From the NCBI GenBank assembly GCA_018647765.1, contig JABGSN010000030.1, forward strand, positions 549-64,548: 64,000 nt of DNA. Direction: 5' to 3'. The notes beneath the pieces are model-generated. The model saw only the letters and a list, made by a program, of their open reading frames with translations. It had not been told where the DNA came from and ran no database searches. The position numbers were made by a program, and so were the translations under genes. Each line of letters starts with the position of its first letter. Position 1 is the stretch's first letter. This document shows, in pieces, positions 1 to 53,503 of the stretch. This stretch comes from Oceanospirillaceae bacterium. GTDB taxonomy: Bacteria; Pseudomonadota; Gammaproteobacteria; Pseudomonadales; Balneatricaceae.

Positions 1-857
1 GACCGCTGGTCTGAGGGTTCCATTAATATGTAATAACCCCAAGGTTTAGGGATGCGTAACCGTTCATTAAACGGCGCTACCAAACGCTTGGTGCTAATTA
101 AGTCTTCTACAAACTCGCTCCAGCCCAAAGCCATACCTTGGCCCGCTTCGGCGGCACTGTATAACATGGGGATATTGTTAAACTCGATACTGGTGCGAAG
201 GCCCTTTAGCGGGCTATGTTGATCAATGAGCCAGTCTTGCCACTTAACCCAGCGCCATTGATTATCATCTAGATCGATGAGGGGTACTTGAGTTAATTGA
301 GACAAGTGGGAGAGCTGATGTTGCTCGGCCATGGCGGGGCTACATACGGGATAAATATCGCCAGACAACAAATACGTCGACTCGGTTTTAGACCATGTGT
401 TGTCGCCGTACTTAATAGCAATGTCGGCATCTTCGTCTACGCCGCCTAAGTGGTTCTCTGAGGTGAGTATTCTTAGGTCGATGTTGGGGTGTTGTTGGAT
501 AAAGCGCCCTAATTTGGGCAATAACCACATTTGTGCAAACGCGGTGGTGGCCGCCACGGTAACGGTTTTTATGGCAGACGGGGAGTTCAGTTGCTCCACG
601 GCATCGGCAATTTGGCCCAGCCCAGAGGCAACCGCTTGGTAGAGTAATTTGCCTTCTGAGCTCAAGCGCAAGGAACGGTGTTGACGCACAAACAACAAGT
701 GGCCTAAACGTTGTTCTAGGTTGGCGATTTGTTTGCTAATTGCCGCTTGGCTCAAATTGAGTTCGACCGCCGCGCGGGTAAAACTCAGGTGACGAGCGCT
801 GGCCTCAAACATAATTAAGCTGTTGGGTGACGGAATTTGTTTGAGTCTTGATATCAT
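1..857 (-). CDS. LysR-family (GcvA-like) transcriptional regulator, 3' end runs off the window
   Basis: Not in the ORF track. Hand translation from ATG at 857 gives MISRLKQIPSPNSLIMFEASARHLSFTRAAVELNLSQAAISKQIANLEQRLG (LysR HTH); the same frame reads ...KPWGYYILMEPSDQRS at the window edge. Divergent from mttB. Confidence 0.9.
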   Translation of the reverse strand, partial: MISRLKQIPSPNSLIMFEASARHLSFTRAAVELNLSQAAISKQIANLEQRLGHLLFVRQHRSLRLSSEGKLLYQAVASGLGQIADAVEQLNSPSAIKTVTVAATTAFAQMWLLPKLGRFIQQHPNIDLRILTSENHLGGVDEDADIAIKYGDNTWSKTESTYLLSGDIYPVCSPAMAEQHQLSHLSQLTQVPLIDLDDNQWRWVKWQDWLIDQHSPLKGLRTSIEFNNIPMLYSAAEAGQGMALGWSEFVEDLISTKRLVAPFNERLRIPKPWGYYILMEPSDQR

Positions 858-929
858 AACTTTTTGTTATTCAACGCTGTGTTATTAAAAGATTGTTATG
901 GCGCTAAAGAGAGCAAGTTAACATAACAA
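856..929. promoter_or_regulatory. Candidate LysR binding sites in the divergent promoter
   Basis: ATAAC-N5-GTTAT dyad at 856-870 (fits T-N11-A, overlaps the LysR start codon) and TTGTTATG-N21-CATAACAA inverted repeat at 893-929. Confidence 0.4.
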
Positions 930-1159
930 AAGAGTGAAGATCAATGCCTGTATAAGCACTGTATAAAGATAATTTTACCAGTCGAGATGGCGCGAATTTT
1001 TGGCACAAGAGCTAGGTGTGTAAGGGTCTAGTTAAATAACCACAGGTTATCCAGCGCATACCTTTTTGTCGTTTGACAGGCCGCCGTAGTGCCCCTAGCA
1101 TCAAACACATTGTGGCTGCTAATACAGCCCTTTGTTGACTAAAATAGGGGCGTTAAAGC

Positions 1160-2704
1160 ATGGCACCAAAAATAGGCAGTACTCATCGGCGTAGGGCCGG
1201 TGGCCGCACGGGTAAACAAAAAAACATTGAGCCGCTGCAAGGCCCTGCTTATTTAAAACGGGAAATCCCTATCTATGAAATGCTTAATGAAGAAGCATTA
1301 AAAAAGATAGAAGACAATGCCGATGCCATTTTGGAAGAAGTGGGTATTGAGTTTAAAGAAGACGAAGAAGTACTGGAAATCTGGCGTCAGGCAGGCTGTG
1401 ACGTGCAGGGTGATCGCGTACGCTTTAAAAAAGGCATGTTACGCTCCATCATCAACGCAACTTCGCCCAAACAATTTACTCAACATGCCCGTAACCCCGC
1501 CCACTCTATAGAGATTGGCGGCGATAATATGTGTTTTTTCCCCTGTTATGGTTCGCCGTTTGTACACGACCTTGATCAAGGCCGTCGCTACTCCAAAAAT
1601 GAAGACTTTAAAAACTTTATTAAGTTAGCCCACATGTCGCCCTGGTTACACCATTCTGGTGGCACTATTGTTGAGCCTATGGACTTGCCGGTAAACAAGC
1701 GCCACTTTGATATGGTGTATAACCACATTAAGTACAGCGACAAGTGCTTTATGGGGTCGGTAACGGCACCAGAACGGGCGCAAGACTCCATTGATATGGC
1801 GCGCATTTTGTTTGGAGAAGAGTTTTTGGAAAACAATTGCGGCATTATTAGCGTTATTAACGTTAACTCCCCGTTGACCTACGATGGCACCATGCTAGGT
1901 GCATTAAAAACCTATGCCAAGGCTAATCAAGCGGTTATCGTGACGCCCTTTATTCTTATGGGGGCCATGGGGCCTGTGACCTTAGCGGGAGCTTTGTCTC
2001 AGGTATTGGCCGAAGCGATGGCAGGCCTAGCCCTCATTCAACTCATTCGCCCGGGGGCGCCTGGGGTGTTTGGCACCTTTACCAGTTCTATGTCTTTAAG
2101 GTCTGGTGCGCCTACCTTTGGTATGCCTGAACCTGCTCTTGGTTATATTGCCTTTGGCCAATTAGCTAAACGCTTAGGTGTACCCTTACGTGGTGGCGGC
2201 TCCTTAACCGCCTCTAAAATCCCCGATGCCCAAGCTGCACAAGAAAGTGCCGATACACTGTTTCCTACTATGTTGGCAGGTATTAACGTGGTGTTTCAAG
2301 CGGCCGGTTGGTTAGAGGGCGGCCTCACCATGGGTTACGAAAAGTTTATTTTGGATACCGATCACTTGGGCATGATGCACACCATTGCCAAGGGCATAGA
2401 CGTGAGCGACAACGGCCTAGCTTTGAGTGCTTATCACGAAGTGCCACCGGGGCAGCATCATTTGGGCACCGCCCACACCATGGCTAATTATAAAACCGCG
2501 TTTTATGACTCCAGCACCGCCAACCACGAATCCTTTGAACAATGGCAAGAGGAAGGCAGCTTAACGGCAGCGCAACGGGCTAACCGCATCTATAAACAAA
2601 TGCTCAATGATTATGAGCTACCGCCCCTAGATGCCGATATAGACGCCCGTTTACAAGACTATATGCAACAACGAAAAGACTCATTCCCAGACTCTAACGT
2701 CTAA
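1160..2704 (+). CDS. Trimethylamine methyltransferase (MttB) superfamily protein, non-pyrrolysine, MtgB/glycine-betaine methyltransferase-like
   Basis: 514 aa; motifs NVNSPL, GAMGPVT, SKIPDAQAAQES, AAGWLEGGL. Leu occupies the apparent Pyl position (GGSLTASK); no in-frame TAG. Confidence 0.85.
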   Translation: MAPKIGSTHRRRAGGRTGKQKNIEPLQGPAYLKREIPIYEMLNEEALKKIEDNADAILEEVGIEFKEDEEVLEIWRQAGCDVQGDRVRFKKGMLRSIINATSPKQFTQHARNPAHSIEIGGDNMCFFPCYGSPFVHDLDQGRRYSKNEDFKNFIKLAHMSPWLHHSGGTIVEPMDLPVNKRHFDMVYNHIKYSDKCFMGSVTAPERAQDSIDMARILFGEEFLENNCGIISVINVNSPLTYDGTMLGALKTYAKANQAVIVTPFILMGAMGPVTLAGALSQVLAEAMAGLALIQLIRPGAPGVFGTFTSSMSLRSGAPTFGMPEPALGYIAFGQLAKRLGVPLRGGGSLTASKIPDAQAAQESADTLFPTMLAGINVVFQAAGWLEGGLTMGYEKFILDTDHLGMMHTIAKGIDVSDNGLALSAYHEVPPGQHHLGTAHTMANYKTAFYDSSTANHESFEQWQEEGSLTAAQRANRIYKQMLNDYELPPLDADIDARLQDYMQQRKDSFPDSNV

Positions 2705-2726
2705 CCTAATATTTGGAGCAGTATCC

Positions 2727-5147
2727 ATGGAAACCCAAGCAAGAGTAGTGATTATTGGTGGCGGCGTAGTTGGCTGCTCCATATTGTTTCATTTAGCCAA
2801 ATTTGGCTGGAGCGATGTGGTGTTGTTGGAGCGTTCGGAGCTGACTTCTGGCTCGTCCTGGCACGCTGCTGGGCAAACTCATACCATCAGTTCGGACCCA
2901 AATATTTCACGCTTGCAAAGCTACACCCTAAAACTCTATGAAGAGTTAGAGGTTTTATCGGGCCAATCCTGTGGCTTACATACCACCGGTGGTATTTATT
3001 TAGCCGCCACGCCAGAGCGCCTAGACTTTTTAAAACAAGAGCGCTCTAAAGCTCGTTATATGGGCCTAGACCAAGAGTTTATCTCCTTGGAAGAGGCCGC
3101 CAAAATGCACCCGTTGATCGATCCATCCAAATACCTTGGTGCGCTGTATGATCCTATTGATGGGCATGTGGACCCTTCGGGGGTAACTTATGCCTATGCT
3201 AAGGCCGCCCGTCATTATGGCGCCTCTTATCATCGCAACTGCCCCGTGTTAGAAACCAACCCCCGCGCCGATGGCACTTGGGATGTGGTGACCGCCCAAG
3301 GCACTATCCATGCCGAACATGTGGTTAACGCCGCCGGCCTTTGGGCCAGAGAAGTGGGCCATTTAGCAGGCATCGATTTGCCTGTGCAGCCTATGGAGCA
3401 TCATTACCTAATTACCGATACCATCGCCGAAATTGCTTCTCATCCGCATGAATTGCCGGGCGCCATCGATTACGAAGGCAACCTCTACTGCCGTCAAGAA
3501 GGCCAAGGTTTATTGTTGGGCACTTACGAAGCCATAAGCACACCGTGGATGGTAAAAGGTACCCCCAAGGACTTTGGCCATGAACTGCTTAACGAAAACC
3601 TAGATGCCATTGCCGAACGTCTAGAAGTGGCCTTTGACCGTATGCCCGCCTTAGGACGTGCAGGCATTAAGAAGGTGGTTAACGGGCCTTTCACCTTTGG
3701 CCCCGATGGCAACCCCATGATTGGCCCTGTACCTGGCTTACGCAATTACTGGAGCGCCGTTGGCGTTATGGCTGGTTTCTGCCAAGCCGGTGGTGTGGGT
3801 AAGAGCTTGGCTGAGTGGATGATAGAAGGGGAACCAGAAATCGACCCTTGGGCCATGGATATTGCCCGTTTTGGCGAGTTTGCCACGCGTGAATATGGCA
3901 CAAGTAAAGCCTCAGAAAACTATAGCCGCAGGTTTATTCTAACCTACCCTAACGAAGAACTACCGGTGATGCGCAAGCAAAAAACCACGGCGCTGTATGA
4001 TCGTTTGGTAGCCAAGGGCGCGGTAATGGGGGCAAGTTTTGGTTTAGAAAATGCACTTTGGTTTGCCGATGGCCCAGAAAACGCCATAGAAACACCTACC
4101 TTGCGGCGCTCTAATGCCTTTCCTTATGTGGCTGAAGAAGTAAAAGCCGTGCGCGAGCGCGTAGGAGCCATAGAAATTGCCAACTTTGCCAAACACGAAA
4201 TCAAAGGCCCGGGTGCAGAGCAGTTCTTAGACCGTATCTTGGCCTGTAAGCTGCCAAAAGTAGGCCGCTTAACGCTAACACCTATGCTTACACCAAGTGG
4301 CAAACTATACGGCGATCTTACGGTAGCGCGTATGGATGCAGAGACCTTTTACCTGTTTGGCTCGGGCACTGCCCAAGAGATGCACCGGCGTTGGTTTGAA
4401 CAGCATATGCCAGCTACAGGGGTGAGCTACCGCAACCGCTCCGATGAATTGCATGGCATTTCTATCTCTGGGCCACAGTCCCGCGAGTTGTTGTCGCGCA
4501 TTTGCCGCGATGACGTAAGTAATGAAGGCTTAAAGTTCCGTGATCTACGCCGCACCTCCGTAGCAGGAGTGCCGGTTATATTGGCACGGGTTTCGTTTTC
4601 CGGTGAGTTAGGTTACGAAATTTACTGTGCACCACAATACCAGTTGAAGCTTTATGAAAGCTTGTCTGAAGCGGGCGAGGACTTAGGCCTAAGGTTTTAC
4701 GGTAACCGTGCCCTTATGTCCATGCGTTTGGAGAAAAGCTGGGGTGTTTGGACGTTAGAATTTAGGCCAGACTTTACTCCCGCCCAATCGGGCATGGATG
4801 CATTTATCGCCTTCGATAAAGAGGCCGACTTTATTGGTAAACAAGCCGCAATGCTAGAACGCGAGCAAGGCCCAGATAAAAAGTTAGTGACCTTAGTGGT
4901 GGCGACAGAAGGTTTGGATTGTATTCACGATGAAGCCATCTTCCACAATGGCACCTGTGTAGGCTATGTAACATCGGGAGGCTATGCCCACCATGTACAG
5001 CAAAGCGTGGCCATGGGTTATGTGCCAGCAGAATTAGCCCAAGATGGTGCTGTGTTCGAAATCGAAATGCTAGGCGAAATGCACCAAGCCACATATACTG
5101 CCACGCCTTTGTATGACCCTGCTGGTAACAAGATCAGAGGCGCTTAA
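2727..5147 (+). CDS. Dimethylglycine dehydrogenase-like FAD-dependent oxidoreductase (DAO + GcvT folate-binding domains)
   Basis: 806 aa; GGGVVG FAD motif, ELTSGSSWHAAG (flavinylation His region), NGPFTFGPDG, GcvT C-terminus (SFSGELGYEI, RLEKS, VTSGGY). Confidence 0.85.
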   Translation: METQARVVIIGGGVVGCSILFHLAKFGWSDVVLLERSELTSGSSWHAAGQTHTISSDPNISRLQSYTLKLYEELEVLSGQSCGLHTTGGIYLAATPERLDFLKQERSKARYMGLDQEFISLEEAAKMHPLIDPSKYLGALYDPIDGHVDPSGVTYAYAKAARHYGASYHRNCPVLETNPRADGTWDVVTAQGTIHAEHVVNAAGLWAREVGHLAGIDLPVQPMEHHYLITDTIAEIASHPHELPGAIDYEGNLYCRQEGQGLLLGTYEAISTPWMVKGTPKDFGHELLNENLDAIAERLEVAFDRMPALGRAGIKKVVNGPFTFGPDGNPMIGPVPGLRNYWSAVGVMAGFCQAGGVGKSLAEWMIEGEPEIDPWAMDIARFGEFATREYGTSKASENYSRRFILTYPNEELPVMRKQKTTALYDRLVAKGAVMGASFGLENALWFADGPENAIETPTLRRSNAFPYVAEEVKAVRERVGAIEIANFAKHEIKGPGAEQFLDRILACKLPKVGRLTLTPMLTPSGKLYGDLTVARMDAETFYLFGSGTAQEMHRRWFEQHMPATGVSYRNRSDELHGISISGPQSRELLSRICRDDVSNEGLKFRDLRRTSVAGVPVILARVSFSGELGYEIYCAPQYQLKLYESLSEAGEDLGLRFYGNRALMSMRLEKSWGVWTLEFRPDFTPAQSGMDAFIAFDKEADFIGKQAAMLEREQGPDKKLVTLVVATEGLDCIHDEAIFHNGTCVGYVTSGGYAHHVQQSVAMGYVPAELAQDGAVFEIEMLGEMHQATYTATPLYDPAGNKIRGA

Positions 5148-5155
5148 TTTACGGG

Positions 5156-5231
5156 TGTTTTTACGAGCAAAGCGAAGCAATCCAATGCCGCGGTCTGTGG
5201 ATTGCCACGTCGCTGCGCTTCTCGCAATGAC
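5156..5231. repeat. REP-like palindromic element, copy A
   Basis: GCGAAGCAATCCA-spacer-TGGATTGCCACGTCGCTGCGCTTCTCGCAATGAC; same arms as copies B, D, F and I. Confidence 0.85.
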
Positions 5232-5333
5232 AGGGGGTGGAACAGTATCTTACTCCCAATGTCGTAGTTTCATATTGGCTTGTGTCGGTTAGTATGAGGT
5301 ACTAACTATTTTGTACAGATCTAGGATGAGTTA

Positions 5334-7223
5334 ATGAGCTACGCGGCATCGTATCAGCAGGCCCTCACACAACCCAATTTATTTTGGCAACAACAAGCCA
5401 ACCGCTTACCGTGGTTTAAGGCCCCCACGAAGATGGTGGATACCAGTCAAACAGCCACAGGGCGCTGGTTTACAGACGGCGTAATGAATACCTGTTACAT
5501 GGCCCTAGACCATCACGTGGCCAATGGCCGTGGTGATCAAGTGGCTATATATTACGACTCACCCGTAACCAACACCCAATCTAGCCTCACCTATAGTCAG
5601 TTGTTGCGTCAGGTGTGCCTGTTTGCTAGCGCTTTGCGTGATCAAGGCGTGAAAAAAGGCGACCGGGTGGTGATTTATATGCCCATGGTAATGGAAGCCT
5701 CGATTGCTATGTTGGCTTGCGCGCGTTTAGGCGCAGTGCATTCAGTAGTGTTTGGCGGTTTTGCTGCGGCCGAGTTAGCCGTACGTATTGACGACGCTCA
5801 ACCGACGGCAATTATTAGCGCCTCTTGCGGTATTGAAGTGGCCAAAGTGATTGCTTATAAACCTTTGTTGGATGAAGCCTTAGACCTGGCTCAACATAAA
5901 GTGAAAAGCGTAGTGGTATTGCAACGGCCACAGTTAGAGGCCGATTTACAAGCAGGACGAGACCACGATTGGCTCAGTCTTATGGCCCAAGCACAAATTA
6001 GAAATGATGTGGTCGAGGCCGTGTCGGTACTCGCCACAGACCCGCTGTATATTCTCTATACGTCGGGCACTACCGGCAAGCCTAAAGGCATCGTACGCGA
6101 CAATGGTGGCCATGCGGTGGTCCTCAACTACACCATGAAAGCCATCTACAACATGGATGCCGGCGACGTATTTTGGGCCGCCTCTGACGTGGGTTGGGTG
6201 GTAGGCCATGCCTACATTGTTTATGGTCCCTTGATTGCCGGTTGTACGAGTATTTTGTACGAAGGCAAGCCGGTAATGACGCCTGATGCAGGTGCCTTTT
6301 GGCGCGTCATCGAAGAGTATAAGGTTAAAGCTATTTTCTCTGCGCCAACGGCATTCCGTGCTATTAAAAAAGAAGACCCACAAGGCGAGTTACTCAAAAA
6401 ATATGACTTAAGCAGTTTAGAAACCGTCTTTATGGCGGGTGAACGATTAGACCCCCCAACCTACGATTGGGCTGTAGAAACCATTGGTCGTCCGGTAGTG
6501 GATCACTGGTGGCAAACAGAAACTGGTTGGTCCATCTGTGCTAACCCTGTGGGTCTGGATGATTTACCTGCCAAGCCAGGTTCGTCTACGGTGCCTATCG
6601 CCGGGTACGATTTACATGTGTTGTCTGATGCAGGGGAGCCTGTAGAGGCTAATGTAAAAGGCAACATTGCCTTAAAACTACCATTGCCTCCAGGCTGTTT
6701 GGTGGGTATTTGGGGCGACGAAGGCCGTTTGCACGACTCTTACCTTAAAGAGTTCCCGGGTTACTACACCTCCGGCGATGGCGGATACCTAGATGACGAT
6801 GGTTATGTGTTTATTATGGGTCGCACCGACGATGTTATTAATATTGCTGGCCACCGTTTGTCTACCGGCGAAATGGAAGAAGTTGTGGGTGCCCATGAGT
6901 TGGTGGCGGAGTGCGCTGTGGTGGGTGTTCAAGACCCATTAAAAGGCCAGTTGCCTATGGCATTGGTATTGCTCAAGGCGGGTGTACAAATAGACGACCC
7001 GCAACTCGGCAAAGAGCTGGCAGCGATGTTGCGTAAAACCATTGGCCCTATTGCGGTACTTAAAAGCGCTCACATCGTGCCGCGCTTACCAAAAACCAGA
7101 TCGGGTAAGATACTTCGCAAAATTATTCGCAATATTGCTAATGGCGAAGACTATGTGGTGCCTTCCACGATAGACGATCCTGCCAGCTTAGATGAAATTA
7201 AAGTGTTGGTGAGTAGTCAATAA
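5334..7223 (+). CDS. prpE: Propionyl-CoA synthetase / short-chain acyl-CoA ligase
   Basis: 629 aa; YTSGTTGKPKG AMP-binding motif, YDSPVT, DHWWQTETGW, LPKTRSGKILR. Confidence 0.8.
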   Translation: MSYAASYQQALTQPNLFWQQQANRLPWFKAPTKMVDTSQTATGRWFTDGVMNTCYMALDHHVANGRGDQVAIYYDSPVTNTQSSLTYSQLLRQVCLFASALRDQGVKKGDRVVIYMPMVMEASIAMLACARLGAVHSVVFGGFAAAELAVRIDDAQPTAIISASCGIEVAKVIAYKPLLDEALDLAQHKVKSVVVLQRPQLEADLQAGRDHDWLSLMAQAQIRNDVVEAVSVLATDPLYILYTSGTTGKPKGIVRDNGGHAVVLNYTMKAIYNMDAGDVFWAASDVGWVVGHAYIVYGPLIAGCTSILYEGKPVMTPDAGAFWRVIEEYKVKAIFSAPTAFRAIKKEDPQGELLKKYDLSSLETVFMAGERLDPPTYDWAVETIGRPVVDHWWQTETGWSICANPVGLDDLPAKPGSSTVPIAGYDLHVLSDAGEPVEANVKGNIALKLPLPPGCLVGIWGDEGRLHDSYLKEFPGYYTSGDGGYLDDDGYVFIMGRTDDVINIAGHRLSTGEMEEVVGAHELVAECAVVGVQDPLKGQLPMALVLLKAGVQIDDPQLGKELAAMLRKTIGPIAVLKSAHIVPRLPKTRSGKILRKIIRNIANGEDYVVPSTIDDPASLDEIKVLVSSQ

Positions 7224-7243
7224 CGACCCTAGTAGCTGCTATT

Positions 7244-7831
7244 TTAGTGGCAATGCTGATCTACCAGCGCTTGTAATAGGTCTACGAAGTAGGCGAAGTC
7301 ATAGGTTTGTAGGTCGGCTACTTTGCCGGCGTCGTCCAGTAAGCGCACTTGGATAATGTCTTGCAAGTGCGGATTAGCTTCAAACTCAGCCACTTCGGTG
7401 GCCGACATAGGGCCGCCTTGTAAGTGTAATGAGTGTACCGAGGCAACGCTGAGTTGTGAGAAGTACTCGCTACGGGTGGCGCAAAGGTATCGTTTGGCTG
7501 CCACATGATGGCGTACGCACTGAGTCACCTTTTCTGGAAAAAATGGCGCTAGCACCTTGGCACCAAACACTTCGTGTTGCCGGTCATGGGTGTCGGTCAT
7601 GGCAAAGGTGCCAAATTCACTGGTGAAATGGCCAATGTCATGTAATAAGGCCGCTGCAATAACGGTATTAGACAGGCCTTGATGTACTGCAAGGGAGGCA
7701 CCTTGTAACATATGTTGAGCCATTGTTACCGGTTCACCTAAATATTCTTCTTCCCCACAAAACTCAAAAACATCACCCAAATGGGCCACAATATTGCTGG
7801 TCGTAAGTTGCTTAAAGCGGCTTTTCATCAA
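7244..7831 (-). CDS. tmpB: HD-domain diiron oxygenase (PhnZ/TmpB family), likely hydroxy-trimethylaminoethylphosphonate oxygenase
   Basis: 195 aa; HMLQ...ALLHDIGHF, HE, RHHV, DDAGK ligand pattern; ATGA overlap with the TmpA-like gene. Confidence 0.75.
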   Translation of the reverse strand: MMKSRFKQLTTSNIVAHLGDVFEFCGEEEYLGEPVTMAQHMLQGASLAVHQGLSNTVIAAALLHDIGHFTSEFGTFAMTDTHDRQHEVFGAKVLAPFFPEKVTQCVRHHVAAKRYLCATRSEYFSQLSVASVHSLHLQGGPMSATEVAEFEANPHLQDIIQVRLLDDAGKVADLQTYDFAYFVDLLQALVDQHCH

Positions 7832-8964
7832 CCTTCTCCTAGCACATTGTTGAGCACGGCTAAACGCGAGCGTAAGCCATCCATGTCGGTATAACAGCCT
7901 TGTAGCCAGCGTGTACCTGCCCCAGAAAATGCCTTGCGAGCATGTAGCACACGGGTATTGTCGATCACAAAACAGTCGCCTGGATTAAGCCTAAAACCCA
8001 CTTCCGAGTTCGGGTGATCTATAATTTCGCCCAGTCGCCGATAGGCGGCATAGTAGTCTGCCATATGTTCAAAAGGAATGTCGGTAAAGGGGGCGGCCGA
8101 GCGGTTGTTAAAGCGTATGCCTTGTAATTGGCCGTCGGGTGCCAGCTCAATCATGGGCCGCTTAGACTGCAAACACGCATCGGCTTCGCCAGCATACTCA
8201 AAGCGCGCACAATAACGGCTTAATAAATCAAAACCGTGGGGGTTTTCTTGTTGTAGTTGCCTGGCTGCGTTAAAACCATCCACCAACACATTGTCACCAC
8301 CGGGTGCTGAGCTTTCAAGGCAATAGAGCACCTGCATGGTGGGCACAGGATCGCGGTAGGGGTTGTCTGTGTGGGCCTGCAAGGCTAAGCCGGTAAACGC
8401 CAAATTGGTGGGTTTTTCTTCAACTCGCACTTCAAAAATACGGCCGTAGTTGGTGTCCCTCACATGGCCAAATAAATCCACCACTTGAGTTAACGCACCT
8501 GCCTTTATTGGGCCTCCATTGAGCTTGGCAAAACCAAAGCGAGCAATGCCCGCAAGCCATGCTTGTAAGGCTTGAGGCGAACTTGAAACGGCATCAAAGT
8601 CGGCGACCGGTAGGTGGCCCATGAGGTTGTTATCCCACAGGCTTTGGTTAGCGGGATGCCAACCTTTGGTGCTCGCTTGTGGTGTGTCGTAAGCGTGGGC
8701 CGCCAGCCAAGCTAATGGAAAGGCGACTGTTTTTTGCTCTGGCATAAAAGTAACGTGCAATGCCTCTGCCAGCACTTGGGCATGGCTCATGTAGGTGCTC
8801 ACGTCGATGTCGCGTAAGGCGATTAAACGTTGGCCGTTGGTGCTGCTTTTGGTAGCGTCATCTAAGGCGTTGTCGCGCAGCCAAATGGCATGAAAACGTG
8901 TGGTGTTGTTGGCGATTGTGAGGCTTACAACGAGCCCGTCTGAGCTCAAAGAGGCGCAAGACAT
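7828..8964 (-). CDS. tmpA: Fe(II)/2-oxoglutarate dioxygenase, gamma-butyrobetaine-hydroxylase-like (TmpA family)
   Basis: 378 aa; N-terminal FHAIWLRDN...NGQRL, HTD motif (QAHTDNPYRDP), DNTRVLHAR, RWLQGCY; paired with an HD oxygenase as in tmpAB. Confidence 0.75.
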   Translation of the reverse strand: MSCASLSSDGLVVSLTIANNTTRFHAIWLRDNALDDATKSSTNGQRLIALRDIDVSTYMSHAQVLAEALHVTFMPEQKTVAFPLAWLAAHAYDTPQASTKGWHPANQSLWDNNLMGHLPVADFDAVSSSPQALQAWLAGIARFGFAKLNGGPIKAGALTQVVDLFGHVRDTNYGRIFEVRVEEKPTNLAFTGLALQAHTDNPYRDPVPTMQVLYCLESSAPGGDNVLVDGFNAARQLQQENPHGFDLLSRYCARFEYAGEADACLQSKRPMIELAPDGQLQGIRFNNRSAAPFTDIPFEHMADYYAAYRRLGEIIDHPNSEVGFRLNPGDCFVIDNTRVLHARKAFSGAGTRWLQGCYTDMDGLRSRLAVLNNVLGEG

Positions 8965-9058
8965 ACAAATTCCCTAGTTGATGTTGATCATGGCAGTTTA
9001 AGTGAGATGTAACATAAGTTATATTTACTTAAATTAATACTAAGATGTTGTTTTGGTT

Positions 9059-9910
9059 ATGGCAGATGACAAATTTAACGACTTGCCTCTGGAATGGGTA
9101 CGAGCGTTTGAGGCCGCTGGGCGCTTAGGTAGTTTTACCGCAGCAGCGAAGGAAACGGGCTTAACTCAGGCCGCCATAAGTCAGCGTATCGGTTATTTAG
9201 AGCGCCGTTTGGCGTATAAGTTATTTGTACGAAAACCCAGAGGCGTGGCCTTAACTGTACATGGCGAAGCTTGGTTGCCCTATGTTTCCAGTGGCCTTAA
9301 TAGTATTGGTCAAAGCTCGGCACAACTGTTTGGTTTACGGCGCACGCAACTGACCATTGCCGCCAGTGCTTCGGTGATTCAACATTGGTTAATGCCGCGT
9401 TTAGCGAGTACCAGCAAACCCTTGCATTTAACCTTTAGCACTATGGTGGTGGAGGCCGACTTTAAGCAGCAAACTGCAGACGTGGAAGTGAGGTATGGCA
9501 CTGGTCAGTGGCCCAACCGTACCTGCACGCCGTTATTTACCGAGCAGCTCACGCCCTTGGCGAGTCCAGCGTTGTTGGCCAGCGTGCAACATTGGCAACA
9601 ATTACCCAAAATAGCCGTGTCTGGGCCGCGCCTGGGTTGGCACGATTGGGCGCAATGGTCTGGTGATGTAGCAAGCCCCATGGCGCACTATCGATTCGAC
9701 TCACAAACCTGTGCCTTGGCGGCAGCGCAACAAGGCTTGGGTGTGGTGTTGGCGTCCTTGCCCTTGGCGCAACAGTCACTTAAGTTTGGTGCGCTGGTGG
9801 AGTTATCGCCGCAACGTCTCGCTAGTACTGCGGGGCCTTGGTTAACAGCGCCCAAAGACCAACTTTCTCAACTGGACTGGCAGCAGTTAAACGACTTATT
9901 TTGTAGCTAG
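9059..9910 (+). CDS. LysR-family regulator divergent from tmpAB
   Basis: LPLEWVRAFEAAGRLGSFTAAAKETGLTQAAISQRI HTH; ATG at 9059 preferred over TTG at 9053. Confidence 0.9.
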   Translation: MADDKFNDLPLEWVRAFEAAGRLGSFTAAAKETGLTQAAISQRIGYLERRLAYKLFVRKPRGVALTVHGEAWLPYVSSGLNSIGQSSAQLFGLRRTQLTIAASASVIQHWLMPRLASTSKPLHLTFSTMVVEADFKQQTADVEVRYGTGQWPNRTCTPLFTEQLTPLASPALLASVQHWQQLPKIAVSGPRLGWHDWAQWSGDVASPMAHYRFDSQTCALAAAQQGLGVVLASLPLAQQSLKFGALVELSPQRLASTAGPWLTAPKDQLSQLDWQQLNDLFCS

Positions 9911-9922
9911 TGTTCGATCTGC

Positions 9923-11215
9923 CTACCGACCTAGGCGCCTGCCAAACCAATGGGCTACACGCGCACCGGTATTGTAGTAGTGCGCTTTAATAGGCGCAAA
10001 ATGATCAGCTTTAGGTAAGGTGATAGCCACCGGTAAGCTAGCCGGGTCTGCACCCATGGCCCATTGGGCTGCGGCTTTACCCAGCACCGTGGCAGGGCCA
10101 ATGCCACGGCCGCTATAACCGTAAAGGCTGATCGCTTGGGGGCCGATGTGGGCTATTTTTGGCAGGTGATCTGGGGTCATGGCAATGCAGCCACTCCAGG
10201 CATACTGGAATTGATAATCGGTGACTTGCGGGAATAAGGCCCTGAGTTGCCGGTGGGCCCAATTGACGTGGGTTTGTTTGCCCGCGTCTTCAACACAACC
10301 TACACCACCAATAATAAGCCGTCCCGCATTATCCAGCCTAAACGACGACATCACCTGCGCCGTGTCCCAACAGCCTTCGCCTTGGGGCAAGATATGAGCG
10401 CGTTGCTGCGTGCTTAACGGCTGGGTGGCAAACTGGCAAAAGTGCACCGGCGTATGGTGAGGTGTAGCGGTTAAGTTTAGGTCATAGGCATTGGTGGCCA
10501 GTATGAGCTGGTTAGCGTTAATGCTGCCCGTGGCTGTGGTTACGCGCCATTGGTTATCGTCATGGTGGTAACTCAATGCTGGGGATTGTGGGTAAATATG
10601 TGCTCCAGCCGCAACCGCCGCGTGGGCTAAGCCAAAAGCATAGTTTAACGGTTGTATGGTGCCTGCACGCGGGTCAAACAAAGCGCCGATAAATTGGCCC
10701 GACCCTGTGCGAGTTTCAGTGGTGTTAGCGTCTAGCAGTTGTACTGGCGCATGGCGTTTTTGTTGTTGGGCTAAGCGGCGCTTTAGATCTGCCAAACCGA
10801 CACTGTTGTTAGCGCAATGAAGGGTACCATTACGCACCGGTTGGCAATCAATCTGGTGTTGTTCGATTAGCTGAAATACAAGATCGGGTGCCGCGGCGAG
10901 CGCTTGGTTGAGGGTGTGCCCTGCATGGTGGCCCAGTTGAGCTTCCACTTGGTCTGGCGGTACCCATAACCCGGCATTGACTAAGCCGACGTTGCGGCCA
11001 GACCCGCCAAATCCAATAGAATGGGCCTCTACAACCTGAACATCAACACCTTGTTGTGCCAAATGTAGGGCTGCAGACAAGCCGCTGTAGCCGCCACCAA
11101 TAATCACCACGTCAGTGGTCACGTGCGCCTCTAACGGAGGGCTAGCAAAGGTATTGCTAGTGCTGGCACGCCAGAGGCTATGGGCAGGGGTTGAATGGGC
11201 AAGAGTGGGGTTCAA
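9923..11215 (-). CDS. FAD-dependent amine oxidoreductase, L-pipecolate-oxidase-like (DadA/OrdL family)
   Basis: 430 aa; GGGYSGLSAA, GFGGSGRNVGLVNAGLW, LFDPRAGTIQP, WDT..VMSSFRLD, GYSGRG resemble Pseudomonas pipecolate oxidase as recalled; substrate not provable. Confidence 0.65.
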   Translation of the reverse strand: MNPTLAHSTPAHSLWRASTSNTFASPPLEAHVTTDVVIIGGGYSGLSAALHLAQQGVDVQVVEAHSIGFGGSGRNVGLVNAGLWVPPDQVEAQLGHHAGHTLNQALAAAPDLVFQLIEQHQIDCQPVRNGTLHCANNSVGLADLKRRLAQQQKRHAPVQLLDANTTETRTGSGQFIGALFDPRAGTIQPLNYAFGLAHAAVAAGAHIYPQSPALSYHHDDNQWRVTTATGSINANQLILATNAYDLNLTATPHHTPVHFCQFATQPLSTQQRAHILPQGEGCWDTAQVMSSFRLDNAGRLIIGGVGCVEDAGKQTHVNWAHRQLRALFPQVTDYQFQYAWSGCIAMTPDHLPKIAHIGPQAISLYGYSGRGIGPATVLGKAAAQWAMGADPASLPVAITLPKADHFAPIKAHYYNTGARVAHWFGRRLGR

Positions 11216-11221
11216 CGGCGA

Positions 11222-12643
11222 TTACCTGACGAAAACTTTCAAAAATGCATTAACCCGAGCACCATAGGGGGGATACAAGTTGGATAAGGTAGATTTGCGG
11301 GCCTGCTTAAAAATTGGGCGTAACTTACTCATGGTCATAAACCCTTCCATACCATGGTAGTGCCCCATGCCACTTTCGCCCACACCGCCAAACGGTAGGT
11401 CGTGTTGGCTAACCTGCAAGGTGGTGTCGTTGATACACACGCCTCCGGAGCGGGTTTTGTTAATCACGTCTGTTTGTAGCTGTTTATCATGGCTGAATAA
11501 ATACAAGCCTAAAGGGCGAGCGTGGCGATTAACATAGTCCAGTACATCGTTCATGTGAGTGTAAGTCATGATGGGTAATAGGGGGCCAAAAACCTCTTCC
11601 TGCATGACTCTCATATTATCGTTTACGTCGGTTAATAAGGTCGGTGCAAGCTTACGCATCGTGTCGTCGTGGGTGTCACCCATAACCATGGGAATGGCTT
11701 GGGCACCCAGCGCAGAGGCATCGGCTAGGGTACTGTTAAGACGTTGATAAGCTGCTTCATCAATAACCGAGGTGTAGTCGGGGCTACTGATGTTGGGGTA
11801 GCGAGTATTCACAATGCGTTTAGCGGCTGCTACAAATTCGTTTACCTTGCCCTCGGGCACAAACAGGTAATCAGGCGCTACGCAGGTTTGGCCAGCGTTG
11901 AGGCACTTAAAAAACAACAAACGTTCAGCCGCTTTGGTAATAGGGTAGTCGGGGGCAATAATAGCCGGTGATTTACCACCCAATTCCAAAGTTACCGGGG
12001 TGAGGTTGTTGGCCGCCGCACGCATTACTTGGCGGCCGGTACTCCCGGAACCGGTAAACACTAAATGATCAAACGGTAGGGCGGAAAAATCGGAGCCTTT
12101 GGCGCCGGGTATAATGGTAATCATGTCCTCAGCAAAGGTTTCTGCAAACAAAGCCTGTAACAAATGGCATAAATTCGACGAGTTGGCCGCCATTTTTATC
12201 ATGCAGCGGTTACCCGCAGCAATGGCGCATACCAATGGGCTAATACATAGAAATAAAGGGTAGTTCCACGGTACCACAATACCCACTACGCCTAGCGGCT
12301 GCGGAATTACAGTGTTACGGGCACCTAAGGCCCAAATGCCGACGGATCGTTTTTGGGTTTTCATCCACTTGGATAGCTTTTTTCGCGCATGGTTAATGCC
12401 ATCGATGGATGGAAAAATTTCGGCTAAACGGGTTTCTTGGTGCGCCCGATGGCCGTAGTCCTTACAGATGGCGTCTACTATGGCCTGTTGGTTGGCCATA
12501 ATCAGCGATTTAAGCGTGTCTAAGGTGTGCTGGCGCTGTGCTAGGGTTGGGATGCCCTGGGATAAATAGGCCGATTGTTGCTTGGCAAGCGTAGCTCTGA
12601 GCTGGTCCGCGTTGACCTGAGGCGGGTTTAAGGGTGTTGACAT
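11222..12643 (-). CDS. Coniferyl-aldehyde-dehydrogenase-like (CalB/ALDH3) aldehyde dehydrogenase
   Basis: 473 aa; PQPLGVVGIVVPWNYP, FTGSG, LELGGKSP, NAGQTCVAPDY, EEVFGP, PFGGVGESGMG. Confidence 0.8.
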   Translation of the reverse strand: MSTPLNPPQVNADQLRATLAKQQSAYLSQGIPTLAQRQHTLDTLKSLIMANQQAIVDAICKDYGHRAHQETRLAEIFPSIDGINHARKKLSKWMKTQKRSVGIWALGARNTVIPQPLGVVGIVVPWNYPLFLCISPLVCAIAAGNRCMIKMAANSSNLCHLLQALFAETFAEDMITIIPGAKGSDFSALPFDHLVFTGSGSTGRQVMRAAANNLTPVTLELGGKSPAIIAPDYPITKAAERLLFFKCLNAGQTCVAPDYLFVPEGKVNEFVAAAKRIVNTRYPNISSPDYTSVIDEAAYQRLNSTLADASALGAQAIPMVMGDTHDDTMRKLAPTLLTDVNDNMRVMQEEVFGPLLPIMTYTHMNDVLDYVNRHARPLGLYLFSHDKQLQTDVINKTRSGGVCINDTTLQVSQHDLPFGGVGESGMGHYHGMEGFMTMSKLRPIFKQARKSTLSNLYPPYGARVNAFLKVFVR

Positions 12644-12673
12644 GCGGTGAGTTCCTGTTGCTGATAGAGCTAG

Positions 12674-12690
12674 TATGATTCGGAATCATA
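12674..12690. promoter_or_regulatory. Palindromic operator candidate upstream of the CalB-like gene
   Basis: TATGATTC-G-GAATCATA, about 30 bp upstream of the start codon. Confidence 0.5.
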
Positions 12691-12742
12691 ACCAAACCAA
12701 CAACAGAATACTGCAGGTGACCGTAAAACCACAATACTGTTT

Positions 12743-12903
12743 GTCTTTGCGAGCGTAGCGAAGCAATCCAAACCCGCAGGTTATGGGCTGCCACGTGGGC
12801 CTGCCCCATGAGCGCAGCGAGTGCTTTGGGTACACTTCGTTCCTCGGCAATTGCTCCTGCATTGCCCTACTAAGCTACATCCATGTACCGATCGCAGAGA
12901 CGG
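12743..12903. repeat. REP-like element, long form, copy B
   Basis: GTCTTTGCGAGCGTAGCGAAGCAATCC...GGCAATTGCTCCTGCATTGCCCTACTAAGCTACATCCATGTACCGATCGCAGAGACG; long insert shared with copies D and H. Confidence 0.85.
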
Positions 12904-12933
12904 GTCTTGAATTGTGTCATCGACCAACTCAAA

Positions 12934-12993
12934 TCAACGCTTTAGGTCGCGATAAATATTTTCATAACGCCACTCGCTATAAGGTGGGCCTAG
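12934..12993 (-). pseudogene. Relic C-terminus of a RelE/ParE-type toxin
   Basis: Minus-strand frame reads LGPPYSEWRYENIYRDLKR*, resembling the ...LG.HENFYRDLKR* end of toxins paired with ParD-like antitoxins; no start codon or N-terminal part remains. Confidence 0.55.
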
Positions 12994-13202
12994 TTAATGA
13001 CGAATTCAAAAGCCGAGTTTTCTTCATCTAACGCAACTAAGGTATCGCGTATAAATTCAATGGGTAAGTCGGGATTGTCTAAGGCAGCGCGGCCGACCCG
13101 AGCCCAAAATTCAATCTGGCTAGGAATGGTACGAAGCTCTGCTTTAGATTGAACTTTGGCTTGTTGGTACAGGTCGTCTGTAATATGGATTGAAATACTC
13201 AT
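12990..13202 (-). CDS. ParD-like antitoxin (type II TA, RHH-like)
   Basis: 70 aa MSISIHITDDLYQQAKVQSKAELRTIPSQIEFWARVGRAALDNPDLPIEFIRDTL; the RT.PxQIEFWAxxGRxxxDNPDLP signature. Start refined to ATG 13202. Confidence 0.85.
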   Translation of the reverse strand: MSISIHITDDLYQQAKVQSKAELRTIPSQIEFWARVGRAALDNPDLPIEFIRDTLVALDEENSAFEFVIN

Positions 13203-19198: not shown

Positions 19199-19379
19199 GG
19201 GTTGCCAAGTTGCTGCGCGCCTCGCAATGACGAAACGGTGTCTTTGCGAGCGCAGCGAAGCAATCCAAGTCCGCGGTATATGGATTGCCGCAAGCCTTAG
19301 GCCTTCGGCAATTGCTCATGCATTGCTCTACTAAGCTACATCCCTGTAGCGATCGCAAAGACGGGAAATCGCAGAGACG
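19199..19379. repeat. REP-like composite element, copy D
   Basis: Right arm CGCGCCTCGCAATGACG followed by GTCTTTGCGAGCGCAGCGAAGCAATCC-aagtccgcggtata-TGGATTGCC...CTACTAAGCTACATCCCTGTAGCGATCGCAAAGACG. Confidence 0.85.
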
Positions 19380-51353: not shown

Positions 51354-53105
51354 ATGAAGCCAAACACTAATAAACGGGCCTTCGCCGACCCTCAGTGTTT
51401 GGTTGCGAGCCATGATTGGCGTCTCACTAAAACCTGTGCCAAACAACGTTTAGCCGAACTCAAGGCCCAGCATGCTGTCAGCGGCTTTTTCGACGCCTTA
51501 AGTAGGCCGCAAGCGGCGCTGCAAGTGTTTGGGGGCGAGTTTGGCAGTGGTTTGGACTTTTTGCTCACCTGGCAATGGTGGAACACTGCCAACAGCGGTG
51601 GGTCGTTAACCTATCTAGCCATCTGTGAGCAACCGCTAACGCTGGATCAGTTACGCCAAACCCAACAGCAATGGCCACAACTCCAGCGCCAATCACAGGC
51701 CCTGCAAGAGCAATATCCGGGCCCCATCAAAGGCTTTCACCAGCTTGATTTTGGCGTGGTCAAACTGATCTTAGTGCAAGCGCCTAAAGCTGAAGCCATG
51801 GCGCAAATTAGGCCAGAGTTTGATGTAAGCCTTTACCCTTGTGTGCCTGAGTCACCAACCCATCAGCTCCATACGTCATATCAGCATCCATGGCAGCGGC
51901 CTCATAACGCCATGGCTCAGGGCAGCCGCGTGGCGGTTATCGGTGGGGGTATCAGTGGTACAGCCACGGCCTATAGTTTGAGCCAGCGGGGTTTTCATGT
52001 CACCCTCATCGAGCAAGGTCAGAACCTTGCTAGCGGCGCCTCTGGCAACCGGCAAGGCATGCTTTATGCCAAGCTGCCAGACAACGCCACGGTGGCAGGG
52101 CAGTTCCATCAGCAAGGCCTGCAACATAGTATGGCCTTGATCAAACGCAGCTTAAGTAGCGAACATTGGCGCGCGTGTGGACTATTGCAGTTGGCTAAGT
52201 CCTCCCGTGAAGATCAACAAATGCAAGCTGTGATGGCCCGTGGTTATCCCTCTTCTTGGTTACAACACCTTAGTTTGGCCGATGCTCAGGCCATGGCTAA
52301 ACAACCCCTCGCTGCTGGCGGGTTGTTTTTTCCTGCAAGTGGTTGGGTGTCACCTGCTCACTGGTGTCAGGCCCTGTTTGAACTCAGTGGTGCCAGCTTG
52401 TGGCGTGCTAGCCAAGTGCAGGACTTAACCCAGGACGAGGGTTGGCAAGTTCAAGTGACGGGTGATCATCAAGGACTACATCATTTTGATGCCGTGGTGT
52501 TAGCTAATGCTAATGACGCAAAAATCTTAGTGCCGCAGCAAGCGTTGGCGCTCAAATCCATTCGTGGTCAAGTGAGTTATGTGCAATCACAGCAAGGACC
52601 GGATGTGGTGGTGTGTGGCGAAGGTTACGTGACCCCCGCCCAGTCAGGATTGTTAGCGGCAGGTGCCAGCTACAACCTGCATATGGACGATGACGGCTTG
52701 TCAGAGCAAGATCATAGGGACAACTTGCAACGTATGGCCGATGTGCTGCCTAAAACTGCTAATACAGCCTTAGGCGACGTACAGGGCGGGCGGGTAGGCT
52801 TTAGGTCGGTCACGCCAGACTATTTACCCATGGTGGGTCAGATCGCCGATGAAAACAGCGTGATTGAGCGCTTTGGCAAGCTCAGAAAAGACGCTAACTA
52901 TAAGTTCCAACAGGCTATGCCATACTTACAGGGCCTGTATATTAATGCTGGGCACGGCTCTAAAGGCTTGATTAGCGCCCCCTTAAGCGCCGAAATATTA
53001 GCCAGCCAAATGGCAAACCAGGCCTTGCCTGTGGCACAATGCGTGGCACGGGGTTTGGACCCTAATCGATTCCTGATCCGTGATTTAATTCGCCGTAAAC
53101 GTTAA
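51354..53105 (+). CDS. mnmC: MnmC-like tRNA mnm5s2U biosynthesis protein; FAD oxidase domain intact, methyltransferase domain degenerate
   Basis: IGGGISG, ASGASGNRQG.LY, IRGQVS, GRVGFRSVTPDYLP.VG, GHGSKGL; N-terminus keeps only FGSGLDFL and GFH traces and lacks DAWFLDGF. Confidence 0.85.
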   Translation: MKPNTNKRAFADPQCLVASHDWRLTKTCAKQRLAELKAQHAVSGFFDALSRPQAALQVFGGEFGSGLDFLLTWQWWNTANSGGSLTYLAICEQPLTLDQLRQTQQQWPQLQRQSQALQEQYPGPIKGFHQLDFGVVKLILVQAPKAEAMAQIRPEFDVSLYPCVPESPTHQLHTSYQHPWQRPHNAMAQGSRVAVIGGGISGTATAYSLSQRGFHVTLIEQGQNLASGASGNRQGMLYAKLPDNATVAGQFHQQGLQHSMALIKRSLSSEHWRACGLLQLAKSSREDQQMQAVMARGYPSSWLQHLSLADAQAMAKQPLAAGGLFFPASGWVSPAHWCQALFELSGASLWRASQVQDLTQDEGWQVQVTGDHQGLHHFDAVVLANANDAKILVPQQALALKSIRGQVSYVQSQQGPDVVVCGEGYVTPAQSGLLAAGASYNLHMDDDGLSEQDHRDNLQRMADVLPKTANTALGDVQGGRVGFRSVTPDYLPMVGQIADENSVIERFGKLRKDANYKFQQAMPYLQGLYINAGHGSKGLISAPLSAEILASQMANQALPVAQCVARGLDPNRFLIRDLIRRKR

Positions 53106-53119
53106 CTGAGACTCTCACC

Positions 53120-53503
53120 GTGAACCCAACCAAAATTAAACTACACAAAAGTAGCAATACCTTAGAACTGAGTTATGCGGAAGCCGAAGGTGAAGTCAGT
53201 TACACGCTGAACGCAGAATACTTACGTGTTTCATCTCCCAGTGCCGAAGTTCGTGGCCACAGCCCAGACCAAGCCGTTTTGCAGGTGGGTAAAAGTAAGG
53301 TCAAGCTGGTGGGTATTGAGGCCGTGGGCCATTATGCCGTGAAGCTTGATTATGACGACGGCCATGATTCGGGGCTCTACACATGGGACTATTTGCGTGA
53401 CCTGAGTGTTAACCAAGCTCAGCACTGGGCTGACTACTTAGACGCGTTAAACCAAGCCAAGCAAAGCCGAGACCCACACACTAGCGTGGTGCAGTTTGTT
53501 TAG
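53120..53503 (+). CDS. DUF971 / gamma-butyrobetaine-hydroxylase-like N-terminal domain protein
   Basis: AEYLRVSSPSAEVRGH, VGHYAVKLDYDDGHDSGLYTWDYL. Confidence 0.88.
   Translation: MNPTKIKLHKSSNTLELSYAEAEGEVSYTLNAEYLRVSSPSAEVRGHSPDQAVLQVGKSKVKLVGIEAVGHYAVKLDYDDGHDSGLYTWDYLRDLSVNQAQHWADYLDALNQAKQSRDPHTSVVQFV

Follow-up and report, generated by a model that had tools for sequence, protein, structure and literature searches.

Does a neighborhood that holds genes for cleaving a choline-like phosphonate beside genes for demethylating a betaine work as one catabolic route, or do its parts merely adjoin? The locus that raises this question lies at the start of a window of 64,000 nucleotides, the whole stretch of DNA that was analyzed, on contig C16 of an Oceanospirillaceae bacterium genome (2.49 Mb, 68 contigs, rated 100% complete), whose closest records are Oceanospirillaceae metagenome-assembled genomes (MAGs) and Candidatus Njordibacter genomes. 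Our answer is that tmpA-tmpB and mttB-dmgdh may constitute two separately regulated catabolic modules, lying tail to tail and acting in series as a funnel of known parts for 2-(trimethylammonio)ethylphosphonate (TMAEP), a reading to which we give about even weight. Module 1 would comprise LysR2 and tmpA-tmpB, and module 2 would comprise LysR1 and mttB-dmgdh, followed by acs; as to their coupling, we infer that glycine betaine made by TmpB feeds module 2.

A sequence-only reading of the window had described a tmpA/tmpB-like pair with a divergent LysR gene, situated 2 kb from an mttB-dmgdh operon with a LysR gene of its own. We called genes from an open reading frame (ORF) listing and then scanned the families of Pfam and NCBIfam, and by these means all of the genes named in that reading were found in place. 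The 2-kb spacing was likewise correct, but the interval is not empty, being filled by a plus-strand acs gene (5334-7223) that had been overlooked. The genes are as follows.

3-857, minus strand: LysR1, a LysR regulator gene (Pfam HTH_1 and LysR_substrate), divergent from mttB, with its 3' end beyond the window start
1160-2704, plus strand: mttB-like gene (product, MttB_C16), a non-pyrrolysine methyltransferase of the MttB superfamily (PF06253, 740.6 bits)
2727-5147, plus strand: dmgdh-like flavoenzyme gene (Pfam DAO, FAO_M, GCV_T, and GCV_T_C)
5334-7223, plus strand: acs, acetyl/propionyl-CoA synthetase family (AMP-forming), 629 amino acids (Pfam ACAS_N, AMP-binding, and AMP-binding_C)
7244-7831, minus strand: tmpB, HD-domain diiron oxygenase, predicted to split hydroxy-TMAEP at its C-P bond into glycine betaine and phosphate (NF049941)
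7828-8964, minus strand: tmpA, predicted Fe(II)/2-oxoglutarate hydroxylase of TMAEP (NF049936)
9053-9910, plus strand: LysR2, a LysR regulator gene (Pfam/NCBIfam), divergent from tmpA

The tmpA and tmpB genes overlap by 4 bases, mttB and dmgdh are separated by 22 bases, with GGAG preceding the dmgdh ATG, and acs and tmpB are convergent, with their stop codons 20 bases apart.

Judged from their sequences, tmpA and tmpB very probably encode enzymes of the TmpA/TmpB type with the predicted activities, so that the pair may be called true rather than tmpA/tmpB-like: equivalog models, solved-structure matches, and kept contact residues all point the same way. TmpA passed NF049936 with 561.4 bits (cut-off, 400) and matched the solved structure of Leisingera TmpA (6npb) with 468.2 bits, against 170.7 bits for human gamma-butyrobetaine hydroxylase (BBOX). 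TmpB passed NF049941 marginally (300.7 bits; cut-off, 300) and matched Leisingera TmpB (6npa) with 256.5 bits, against 98 bits for PhnZ. Six residues are invariant in all nine TmpA sequences of our alignment, namely, N187, N287, and R288 together with H198, D200, and H341, the latter three of which we take to be the HxD...H iron ligands, as in the TauD family. The former three are given as phosphonate contacts of TmpA in PMC9296572. In TmpB, the loop Y30-L-G-E33 keeps the YxxE pattern of the substrate loop (PMC8177086), and the H, HD, H, H, and D metal-ligand positions align with those of 6npa.

The pair might instead be a BBOX and a PhnZ acting on hydroxylated 2-aminoethylphosphonate (2-AEP), given that the families are homologous and that substantial scores were obtained with the BBOX model TIGR02409 (392.2 bits) and the Phn-HD model (193.1 bits). 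However, both scores are under cut-off (414.75 bits for TIGR02409), whereas the TmpA and TmpB models are passed; the solved structures favor TmpA and TmpB as well, and Arg288, a contact that TmpA makes with the phosphonate in addition, is kept. Clustering of TmpA with true BBOX, named in the sequence-only reading as an outcome that would refute it, was not found, the TmpA model and 6npb both outscoring BBOX. We therefore hold a BBOX/PhnZ identity to be extremely unlikely.

Pairing of the two genes is the rule. We examined 87 tmpA loci (11 from one search and, from another that gave more than 589, the best 80; four were common to both), and tmpB adjoins tmpA in 85 of them; the other two loci stop at or shortly past tmpA. 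Of the 80 loci whose upstream flank reaches 1 kb or more, 50 carry a divergent LysR2-like gene ahead of tmpA, and thus the divergent LysR gene already noticed beside tmpAB is its usual partner. No PhnA, PhnX, or PhnJ exceeded cut-off in this genome, and no second PhnZ-type gene was found in it; among the systems searched for, tmpAB is its only C-P-cleaving one. Across 121 sampled genomes of the family, 13 carry tmpA over cut-off, and nine of these 13 are among the 11 sampled genomes of the window's genus, this one counted. Since tmpAB is the sole such system found and is so common in the genus, the obscurity of TMAEP may belie its importance to these bacteria. In a related genus, a tmpA match of 421 bits, over cut-off, contains one in-frame TAG (G030:C18:71423-72490), reflecting either a broken gene or a sequencing error. 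Among the best 80 of the more than 589 loci, recurrent neighbors of tmpAB in other bacteria were Opp/Dpp-type ABC transporter ATPases (23 loci), an EamA transporter right after tmpB (8 loci), and a protein of a phosphodiesterase/metalloenzyme family after tmpB (7 loci). These are candidates for uptake or accessory functions, and none of them adjoins tmpAB in the window.

Module 2 is a copy of an old, conserved cassette, LysR-mttB-dmgdh. Orthologues of dmgdh with 62 to 85% identity were found at 80 loci, widely in Alpha- and Gammaproteobacteria, and where at least 1.7 kb of upstream sequence was available (71 loci), an MttB gene lay directly upstream on the same strand in 46, elsewhere in the flank in 10, and nowhere in 15. 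A LysR1-like gene is divergent upstream of 26 of the 46 pairs. The proposed mttB-dmgdh operon with its own LysR is thus supported as an operon-like unit, both by its short gap and GGAG and by the wide conservation of this type of pair. LysR1 itself scored best among NCBIfam models with GcvA (236.9 bits) and a choline-sulfate regulator (232.3 bits), both under cut-off. The closest dmgdh (85%), in another Oceanospirillaceae MAG (L193:4452-7859), stands directly beside a LysR1-like gene (59%) without an mttB between them, giving the family a third layout of the cassette.

MttB_C16 matches PF06253 over profile positions 2 to 500 with its 514 amino acids, is full length, and contains no internal stop or in-frame pyrrolysine codon. 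Its matches in the PDB include 4yyc (640.2 bits) and, over nearly the full length, MtgB of Desulfitobacterium hafniense (2qne, 414.5 bits). It is probably a quaternary-amine:corrinoid methyltransferase, as far as its sequence tells. The glycine betaine contacts of D. hafniense MtgB are Y97, R312, H348, and F356 (Picking et al. 2026, PMC13080624). We mapped them through the alignment to 2qne, in which all four letters agree once the index is shifted by 16, and found that Y130 and R344 of MttB_C16 keep Tyr97 and Arg312. We computed a FastTree phylogeny from 120 MttB sequences and placed its root at the two paralogues of this genome that diverge most. MttB_C16 belongs there to a 61-member clade (support, 0.967), which includes every one of the 47 MttBs adjoining a dmgdh gene. 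Because MttB_C16 belongs to the conserved cassette, its product is read as dimethylglycine; clade and pairing are the best evidence and support this reading, as evidence of context and not of chemistry. The flavoenzyme matched rat dimethylglycine dehydrogenase (DMGDH; 4pab) with 671.6 bits, the top score among five paralogues in the genome (the others, 625.5, 577.3, 493.2, and 460 bits), and dimethylglycine is its likely substrate. For MttB_C16, we lean toward glycine betaine.

The partners that such a methyltransferase requires are encoded far away. The sole B12-binding protein of the genome, which is MtgC-like, is encoded on contig C38 together with a DUF1638 protein, a pterin-binding methyltransferase, and an activase of the RACo/RamA type, so that a set of MtgC-, MtgD-, and RamA-like partners is present, all on C38, with FolD and SHMT genes near it. 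The MtgC-like protein scored best with the NCBIfam model MtgC_2 (213 bits, below the cut-off of 370), and the pterin-binding protein reached 361.5 bits (cut-off, 259). No classical MetH was found in the genome. This cluster can serve MttB_C16. It occupies C38:45600-51500 (L028:5631-11412), has a GbdR-like regulator gene nearby, and includes a 328-amino-acid protein (L028:8738-9724) with no Pfam or NCBIfam match. For the later step, two soxB genes over cut-off lie elsewhere in the genome, and these Sox systems can carry sarcosine onward.

A number of observations weigh against the serial funnel, some touching the methyltransferase and others, taken up below, the arrangement. Two of the four betaine contacts are not kept in MttB_C16, which has Q380 at the position of His348 and G388 at that of Phe356. 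The MttB_C16 gene is one of seven PF06253 paralogues in the genome, and the paralogue on contig C54 keeps the His, adjoins a BHMT/MtgE-like gene and a gene for a GbdR-like regulator, and scores higher than MttB_C16 with both 4yyc (775.3 versus 640.2 bits) and MtgB 2qne (432.1 versus 414.5 bits). When loci were retrieved with MttB_C16 as the query, 72 of 80 were nearer to C54, which in the same tree sits in a sister clade of 47 (support, 0.924). Furthermore, the genome has four LysR-MttB-flavoenzyme cassettes, on C16 (the window), C56, C28, and C7, and because there are four, not all of them can serve betaine. The description of MttB_C16 as MtgB-like is therefore upheld in part: PF06253 membership, the kept Tyr and Arg, the dmgdh-linked clade, and the corrinoid machinery of the genome favor it, whereas Q380, the seven paralogues, and the closer resemblance of C54 to MtgB do not. 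The other six paralogues are at C54:28919-30412, C49:45905-47401, C68:30531-32003, C56:3108-4610, C28:61796-63292, and C7:9057-10526 (L022-L027); the C28 cassette has two consecutive DMGDH-like genes, and the C49 copy lies beside a PhyH dioxygenase and an Oxidored_FMN/Pyr_redox enzyme.

The substituted contacts raise the alternative that the Gln380 enzyme takes a quaternary amine other than betaine, with the flavoenzyme acting on the corresponding tertiary amine; at its boldest, this alternative would have the enzyme act on TMAEP or on an aminophosphonate that is partly methylated. The changes H348N and H348A raise the Km of D. hafniense MtgB 20- to 40-fold (PMC13080624), and Gln in place of this carboxylate-binding His is common to MttB_C16 and its orthologues L011, L013, L105, and L107. 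In addition, MttB paralogues elsewhere take different quaternary amines (PMC13080624 and PMC12478193), and the three nearest relatives keep mttB without this dmgdh. However, MttB_C16 is placed inside the DMGDH-paired clade; although His is found in 45 and Gln in only 2 of the 47 dmgdh-adjoining MttBs, the same Gln occurs in two Ruegeria MttBs (L198 and L199) directly upstream of dmgdh. Tyr130 and Arg344 are kept, and among its paralogues the flavoenzyme bears the closest likeness to true DMGDH. Gly at the Phe356 site is general in the proteobacterial group (113 of 120 aligned MttBs, with a Trp four residues before). The phosphonate form further lacks a PhnA, PhnX, or PhnJ over cut-off to finish the route. 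We consider a different amine improbable on balance. An attempt to recognize Ruegeria MtgB1 by a guaA neighbor was unproductive, none of the seven loci examined in a Ruegeria genome having guaA.

As to the arrangement, it is real and not an assembly artifact, because a separate metagenome contig (run X3) carries window positions 1-10000 in one piece, with 4 letters differing; X3 may be the source of this DNA. At a word share of at least 0.96, the stretch 2300-5800 was present in material from 12 studies (14 DNA runs, of which two are possible sources of this DNA). All five genes are touched by contigs of three RNA libraries, which is compatible with expression; such contigs indicate presence only, not strand, level, or co-transcription, and gaps in their coverage are meaningless.

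Several features of this arrangement are among the points that count against the funnel. The two modules are convergent and have separate regulators, LysR1 and LysR2 being 30% identical, and for this reason mttB-dmgdh and tmpAB are not co-transcribed. No true tmpA was found within 10 kb in any of the 80 dmgdh-centered loci, the sole TauD-family match being 29% identical. Where a tmpA locus is flanked by 9 kb or more on each side (52 loci), an MttB of the window's clade occurs in only four (L011, L013, L050, and L057) and a dmgdh of the window's type in only three (L034, L050, and L057), all Roseovarius. Scanning Pfam over 60 ORFs revealed neither a TMAEP transporter candidate nor any phosphonate transporter or sarcosine oxidase in the window, the latter two as the sequence-only reading had reported. 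Finally, in the three closest relatives, the 2,626 bases holding dmgdh are replaced by 407 (L105), 87 (L106), and 88 (L107) bases, and relatives G001-G004 have no dmgdh orthologue, their best matches being 51 to 54% identical.

These counts bear on the explanation that the modules are independent neighbors: tmpAB would scavenge phosphorus, mttB-dmgdh would serve betaine from seawater or choline, and their adjacency would be an accident in a small genome packed with cassettes. By our own arithmetic, seven MttB paralogues in 2.49 Mb give a chance of about 6% of finding one no farther than 10 kb from a chosen site, and the absence of co-location from the dmgdh-centered loci and from most tmpA-centered loci, the separate regulation, and the more canonical MtgB candidate on C54 all agree with such an accident. 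An MttB gene of any type was found in six of the 52 full-flank tmpA loci: L011 and L013 of this lineage, L050 and L057 of Roseovarius with the same clade, and L079 and L102 with the C49 type. On the other hand, Roseovarius too has both gene types next to tmpAB, all on one strand and separated from it by a gene for a GbdR-like regulator, and in the window's own lineage tmpAB seems to have gained betaine genes as neighbors twice, mttB first and dmgdh later. Moreover, betaine in the cytoplasm would still be a substrate, whatever the cause of the adjacency. We regard mere independence as possible but rather doubtful.

The Roseovarius loci give the idea of co-location its weight, because adjacency is otherwise rare and about 6% is expected by chance. 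In L050, L057, and L034, an MttB of the same clade and a dmgdh 64 to 67% identical to that of the window are accompanied by a GbdR-like regulator gene just upstream of tmpA-tmpB; the order in L050 is LysR, then mttB, glycine C-acetyltransferase, a PEP-mutase-family gene, dmgdh (67%), the GbdR-like gene, tmpA, tmpB, and EamA, on one strand. This independent and tighter second case is suggestive, resting as it does on two lineages and amounting to no statistical demonstration. The proposal of one funnel neighborhood is thus retained as a real arrangement with a second instance in Roseovarius, and given up as a conserved unit, dmgdh being subject to an insertion or deletion and the co-location being confined to this lineage and Roseovarius. 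The Roseovarius clusters (L050:1763-12744, L057:378-12723, and L034:3634-14251) have a DAO-family gene and a PotF-like ABC transporter farther on. We also considered PalA/PalB (phosphonoalanine) genes there and rejected them: of the two genes that separate mttB from dmgdh, the one of aminotransferase fold is a glycine C-acetyltransferase (651 bits; cut-off, 460), and the one of the PEP-mutase family exceeded the cut-off of no phosphonate model.

The comparison with relatives suggests how the neighborhood arose. In blastn searches, window positions 1-2707 and 5334 onward align to L105 (98% over mttB), L106, and L107, with the following segment between them.

2708-5333, plus strand: 2.6-kb segment consisting of dmgdh and a 186-base spacer, not in the three closest relatives (blastn)

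The nearest dmgdh (85%, L193) is at a different locus, and that of the window is 53% identical to its own paralogue on C56, about the same as the best matches in G001-G004. The window-type MttB occurs at the tmpA loci L011 and L013 and at L105-L107, L106 being the same record as L011. An orthologue of acs adjoins tmpB in 8 of the 87 tmpA loci, all of them Oceanospirillaceae-type records, with or without mttB. We infer a resident tmpAB-acs unit that was joined by LysR1-mttB and later by dmgdh. One gain of dmgdh is more parsimonious than three losses, which does not prove the direction. The juxtaposition is young: tmpAB is near-universal in the genus, mttB is present in a sub-lineage only, and dmgdh is a 2.6-kb gain in this population. 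The resident acs scored 676.7 bits with an NCBIfam acetate--CoA ligase subfamily (cut-off, 657) and 752.1 bits with PrpE (cut-off, 955); as a neighbor of tmpB it has no clear role in the phosphonate-to-betaine funnel.

Farther from tmpAB, the genes below follow, and it is uncertain whether the first two belong to the system.

9923-11215, minus strand: DAO-family FAD oxidoreductase
11222-12643, minus strand: aldehyde dehydrogenase
From 13370 onward: phenylacetate (paa) cluster

Both the FAD oxidoreductase and the aldehyde dehydrogenase genes are upstream of tmpA in 6 of the 87 loci. In the Njordibacter-type loci L013, L014, L015, L029, and L030, they are directly upstream on the tmpA strand without a LysR gene between, as if in one operon; in the window the pair also abuts paaZ and the paa cluster. 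Their best resemblances are to AmaA (426.3 bits; cut-off, 600) and MdlD (309.8 bits; cut-off, 550). We rejected a route from N-methyl-AEP to phosphonoacetaldehyde for 9923-12643, for which the aminophosphonate oxidoreductase model gave 118.7 bits (cut-off, 632.8) and the phosphonoacetaldehyde dehydrogenase model 115.6 bits (cut-off, 635.65); the lack of any PhnA or PhnX over cut-off in the genome also disfavors it. Elsewhere in the window, 51354-53503 encodes a 583-amino-acid DAO-family oxidoreductase followed by a 127-amino-acid protein consisting solely of a GBBH-like N-terminal domain (PF06155), of the type with which BBOX-type enzymes begin, and a cut BCCT transporter gene lies at the far window end (63189-63998).

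Two candidate control sites were noticed beside the regulators.

1073-1101, plus strand: sigma-70-like promoter match TTGACA-17-TAGCAT upstream of mttB, a consensus match only
8965-9052, no strand: divergent control region of 88 bases between tmpA and LysR2, with CTTA-N9-TAAG as a possible LysR box, read by eye

A promoter scan gave 9 sites against a shuffle mean of 14.6, and a terminator scan gave no more sites than shuffles did. No Pho box was found within 3 mismatches in 1-13000, using a consensus of the E. coli type that may not fit this organism. A hairpin considered for the dmgdh-acs spacer was rejected, its fold being no more stable than that of shuffled sequence (z = 0.31). The same spacer contains an element of about 30 to 53 bases (5154-5206), with an 8-base inverted repeat, that recurs at 19237-19289 between paa genes and on contigs C55, C56, C7, and C40 with 85 to 96% identity.

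Taken in series, the proposed steps would run as follows. TMAEP would enter the cell by some transporter, and LysR2 might sense it or its hydroxylated form, by analogy with 2-AEP catabolism, which is LysR controlled and phosphate insensitive (Murphy et al. 2021, PMC8316502). TmpA would hydroxylate C1 of TMAEP, and TmpB would oxidatively cleave the C-P bond to release phosphate and glycine betaine, two steps that are established for the Leisingera enzymes according to PMC10574752 and PMC8177086. MttB_C16, the C54 paralogue, or both would then pass one methyl group of betaine to the MtgC-like corrinoid protein of C38, from which the MtgD-like methyltransferase would move it to tetrahydrofolate, with the RamA-like protein, also of C38, as putative reactivase. 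The DMGDH-type flavoenzyme would oxidize dimethylglycine to sarcosine, delivering a one-carbon unit to tetrahydrofolate, and a sarcosine oxidase, one of the two Sox systems elsewhere, would complete the path to glycine. A more ambitious version, which we put forward only tentatively, is that TMAEP is, for an abundant marine genus with small genomes, a complete nutrient and more than a source of phosphorus: LysR would drive tmpAB regardless of phosphate, the betaine would induce the adjoining cassette, and the yield would be phosphate, three tetrahydrofolate-bound one-carbon units, and glycine, in a cluster caught in mid-assembly that Roseovarius has independently come to resemble.

Every enzyme type in this locus is already known. 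To our knowledge, TmpAB has been known only as a source of phosphate from TMAEP, and the fate of its betaine has not been followed. We found no literature linking TMAEP breakdown to MtgB or DMGDH, in a searched set that leaves subscription journals largely outside. It was not until 2025 that aerobic marine bacteria were described as demethylating betaine by a corrinoid-dependent route (PMC12478193). If true, the joined cluster would connect the cycling of marine phosphonates with that of methyl groups, cobalamin, and nitrogen, and it would provide a natural test case for the assembly of catabolic clusters. Overall, the locus appears to be a sensible metabolic junction, seen in two lineages and recently assembled in this one.

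The locus resembles several known systems and departs from each of them. The TmpA and TmpB enzymes of Leisingera caerulea were reportedly characterized by Rajakovich et al. in 2019 (PDB 6npb and 6npa); the pair in the window agrees with them in being a two-gene unit, in passing the family models, in keeping the phosphonate contacts and YxxE, and in the common divergent LysR gene, whereas its host is a small-genome gammaproteobacterium of the Oceanospirillaceae/Njordibacter type rather than a roseobacter, and the pair adjoins betaine-type demethylation genes. LysR-controlled 2-AEP catabolism (PMC8316502) likewise places an aminophosphonate pathway beside a LysR gene and suggests induction by substrate and not by phosphate starvation, but its enzymes and substrate are others, and regulation in the window is read from gene order. 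The mammalian DMGDHs (4pab and 5l46) share the four-domain architecture with the window protein, at 667 to 672 bits over the full length; the latter differs in being bacterial, one of five paralogues, and of predicted substrate. D. hafniense MtgB (2qne and 9yce; PMC13080624) belongs to the same fold family (414.5 bits) and has the equivalents of the kept Tyr97 and Arg312, whereas the window enzyme has His348 replaced by Gln and Phe356 by Gly, and its host is aerobic and encodes the corrinoid partner far away. A further likeness is to the aerobic MtgBCD system of Ruegeria pomeroyi, in the accessible part of whose description up to seven MttB paralogues per genome are reported and suggested to act on different methylated compounds (Mausz et al. 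2025, PMC12478193). That system, as described there, also has a non-pyrrolysine PF06253 enzyme, a single MtgC-like protein, an MtgD-like methyltransferase, DUF1638, and RamA, no classical MetH, several MttB paralogues, and downstream demethylation genes nearby. The window copy differs from it by the Gln at the His348 position and by its tmpAB neighbor, of which that part of PMC12478193 makes no mention.

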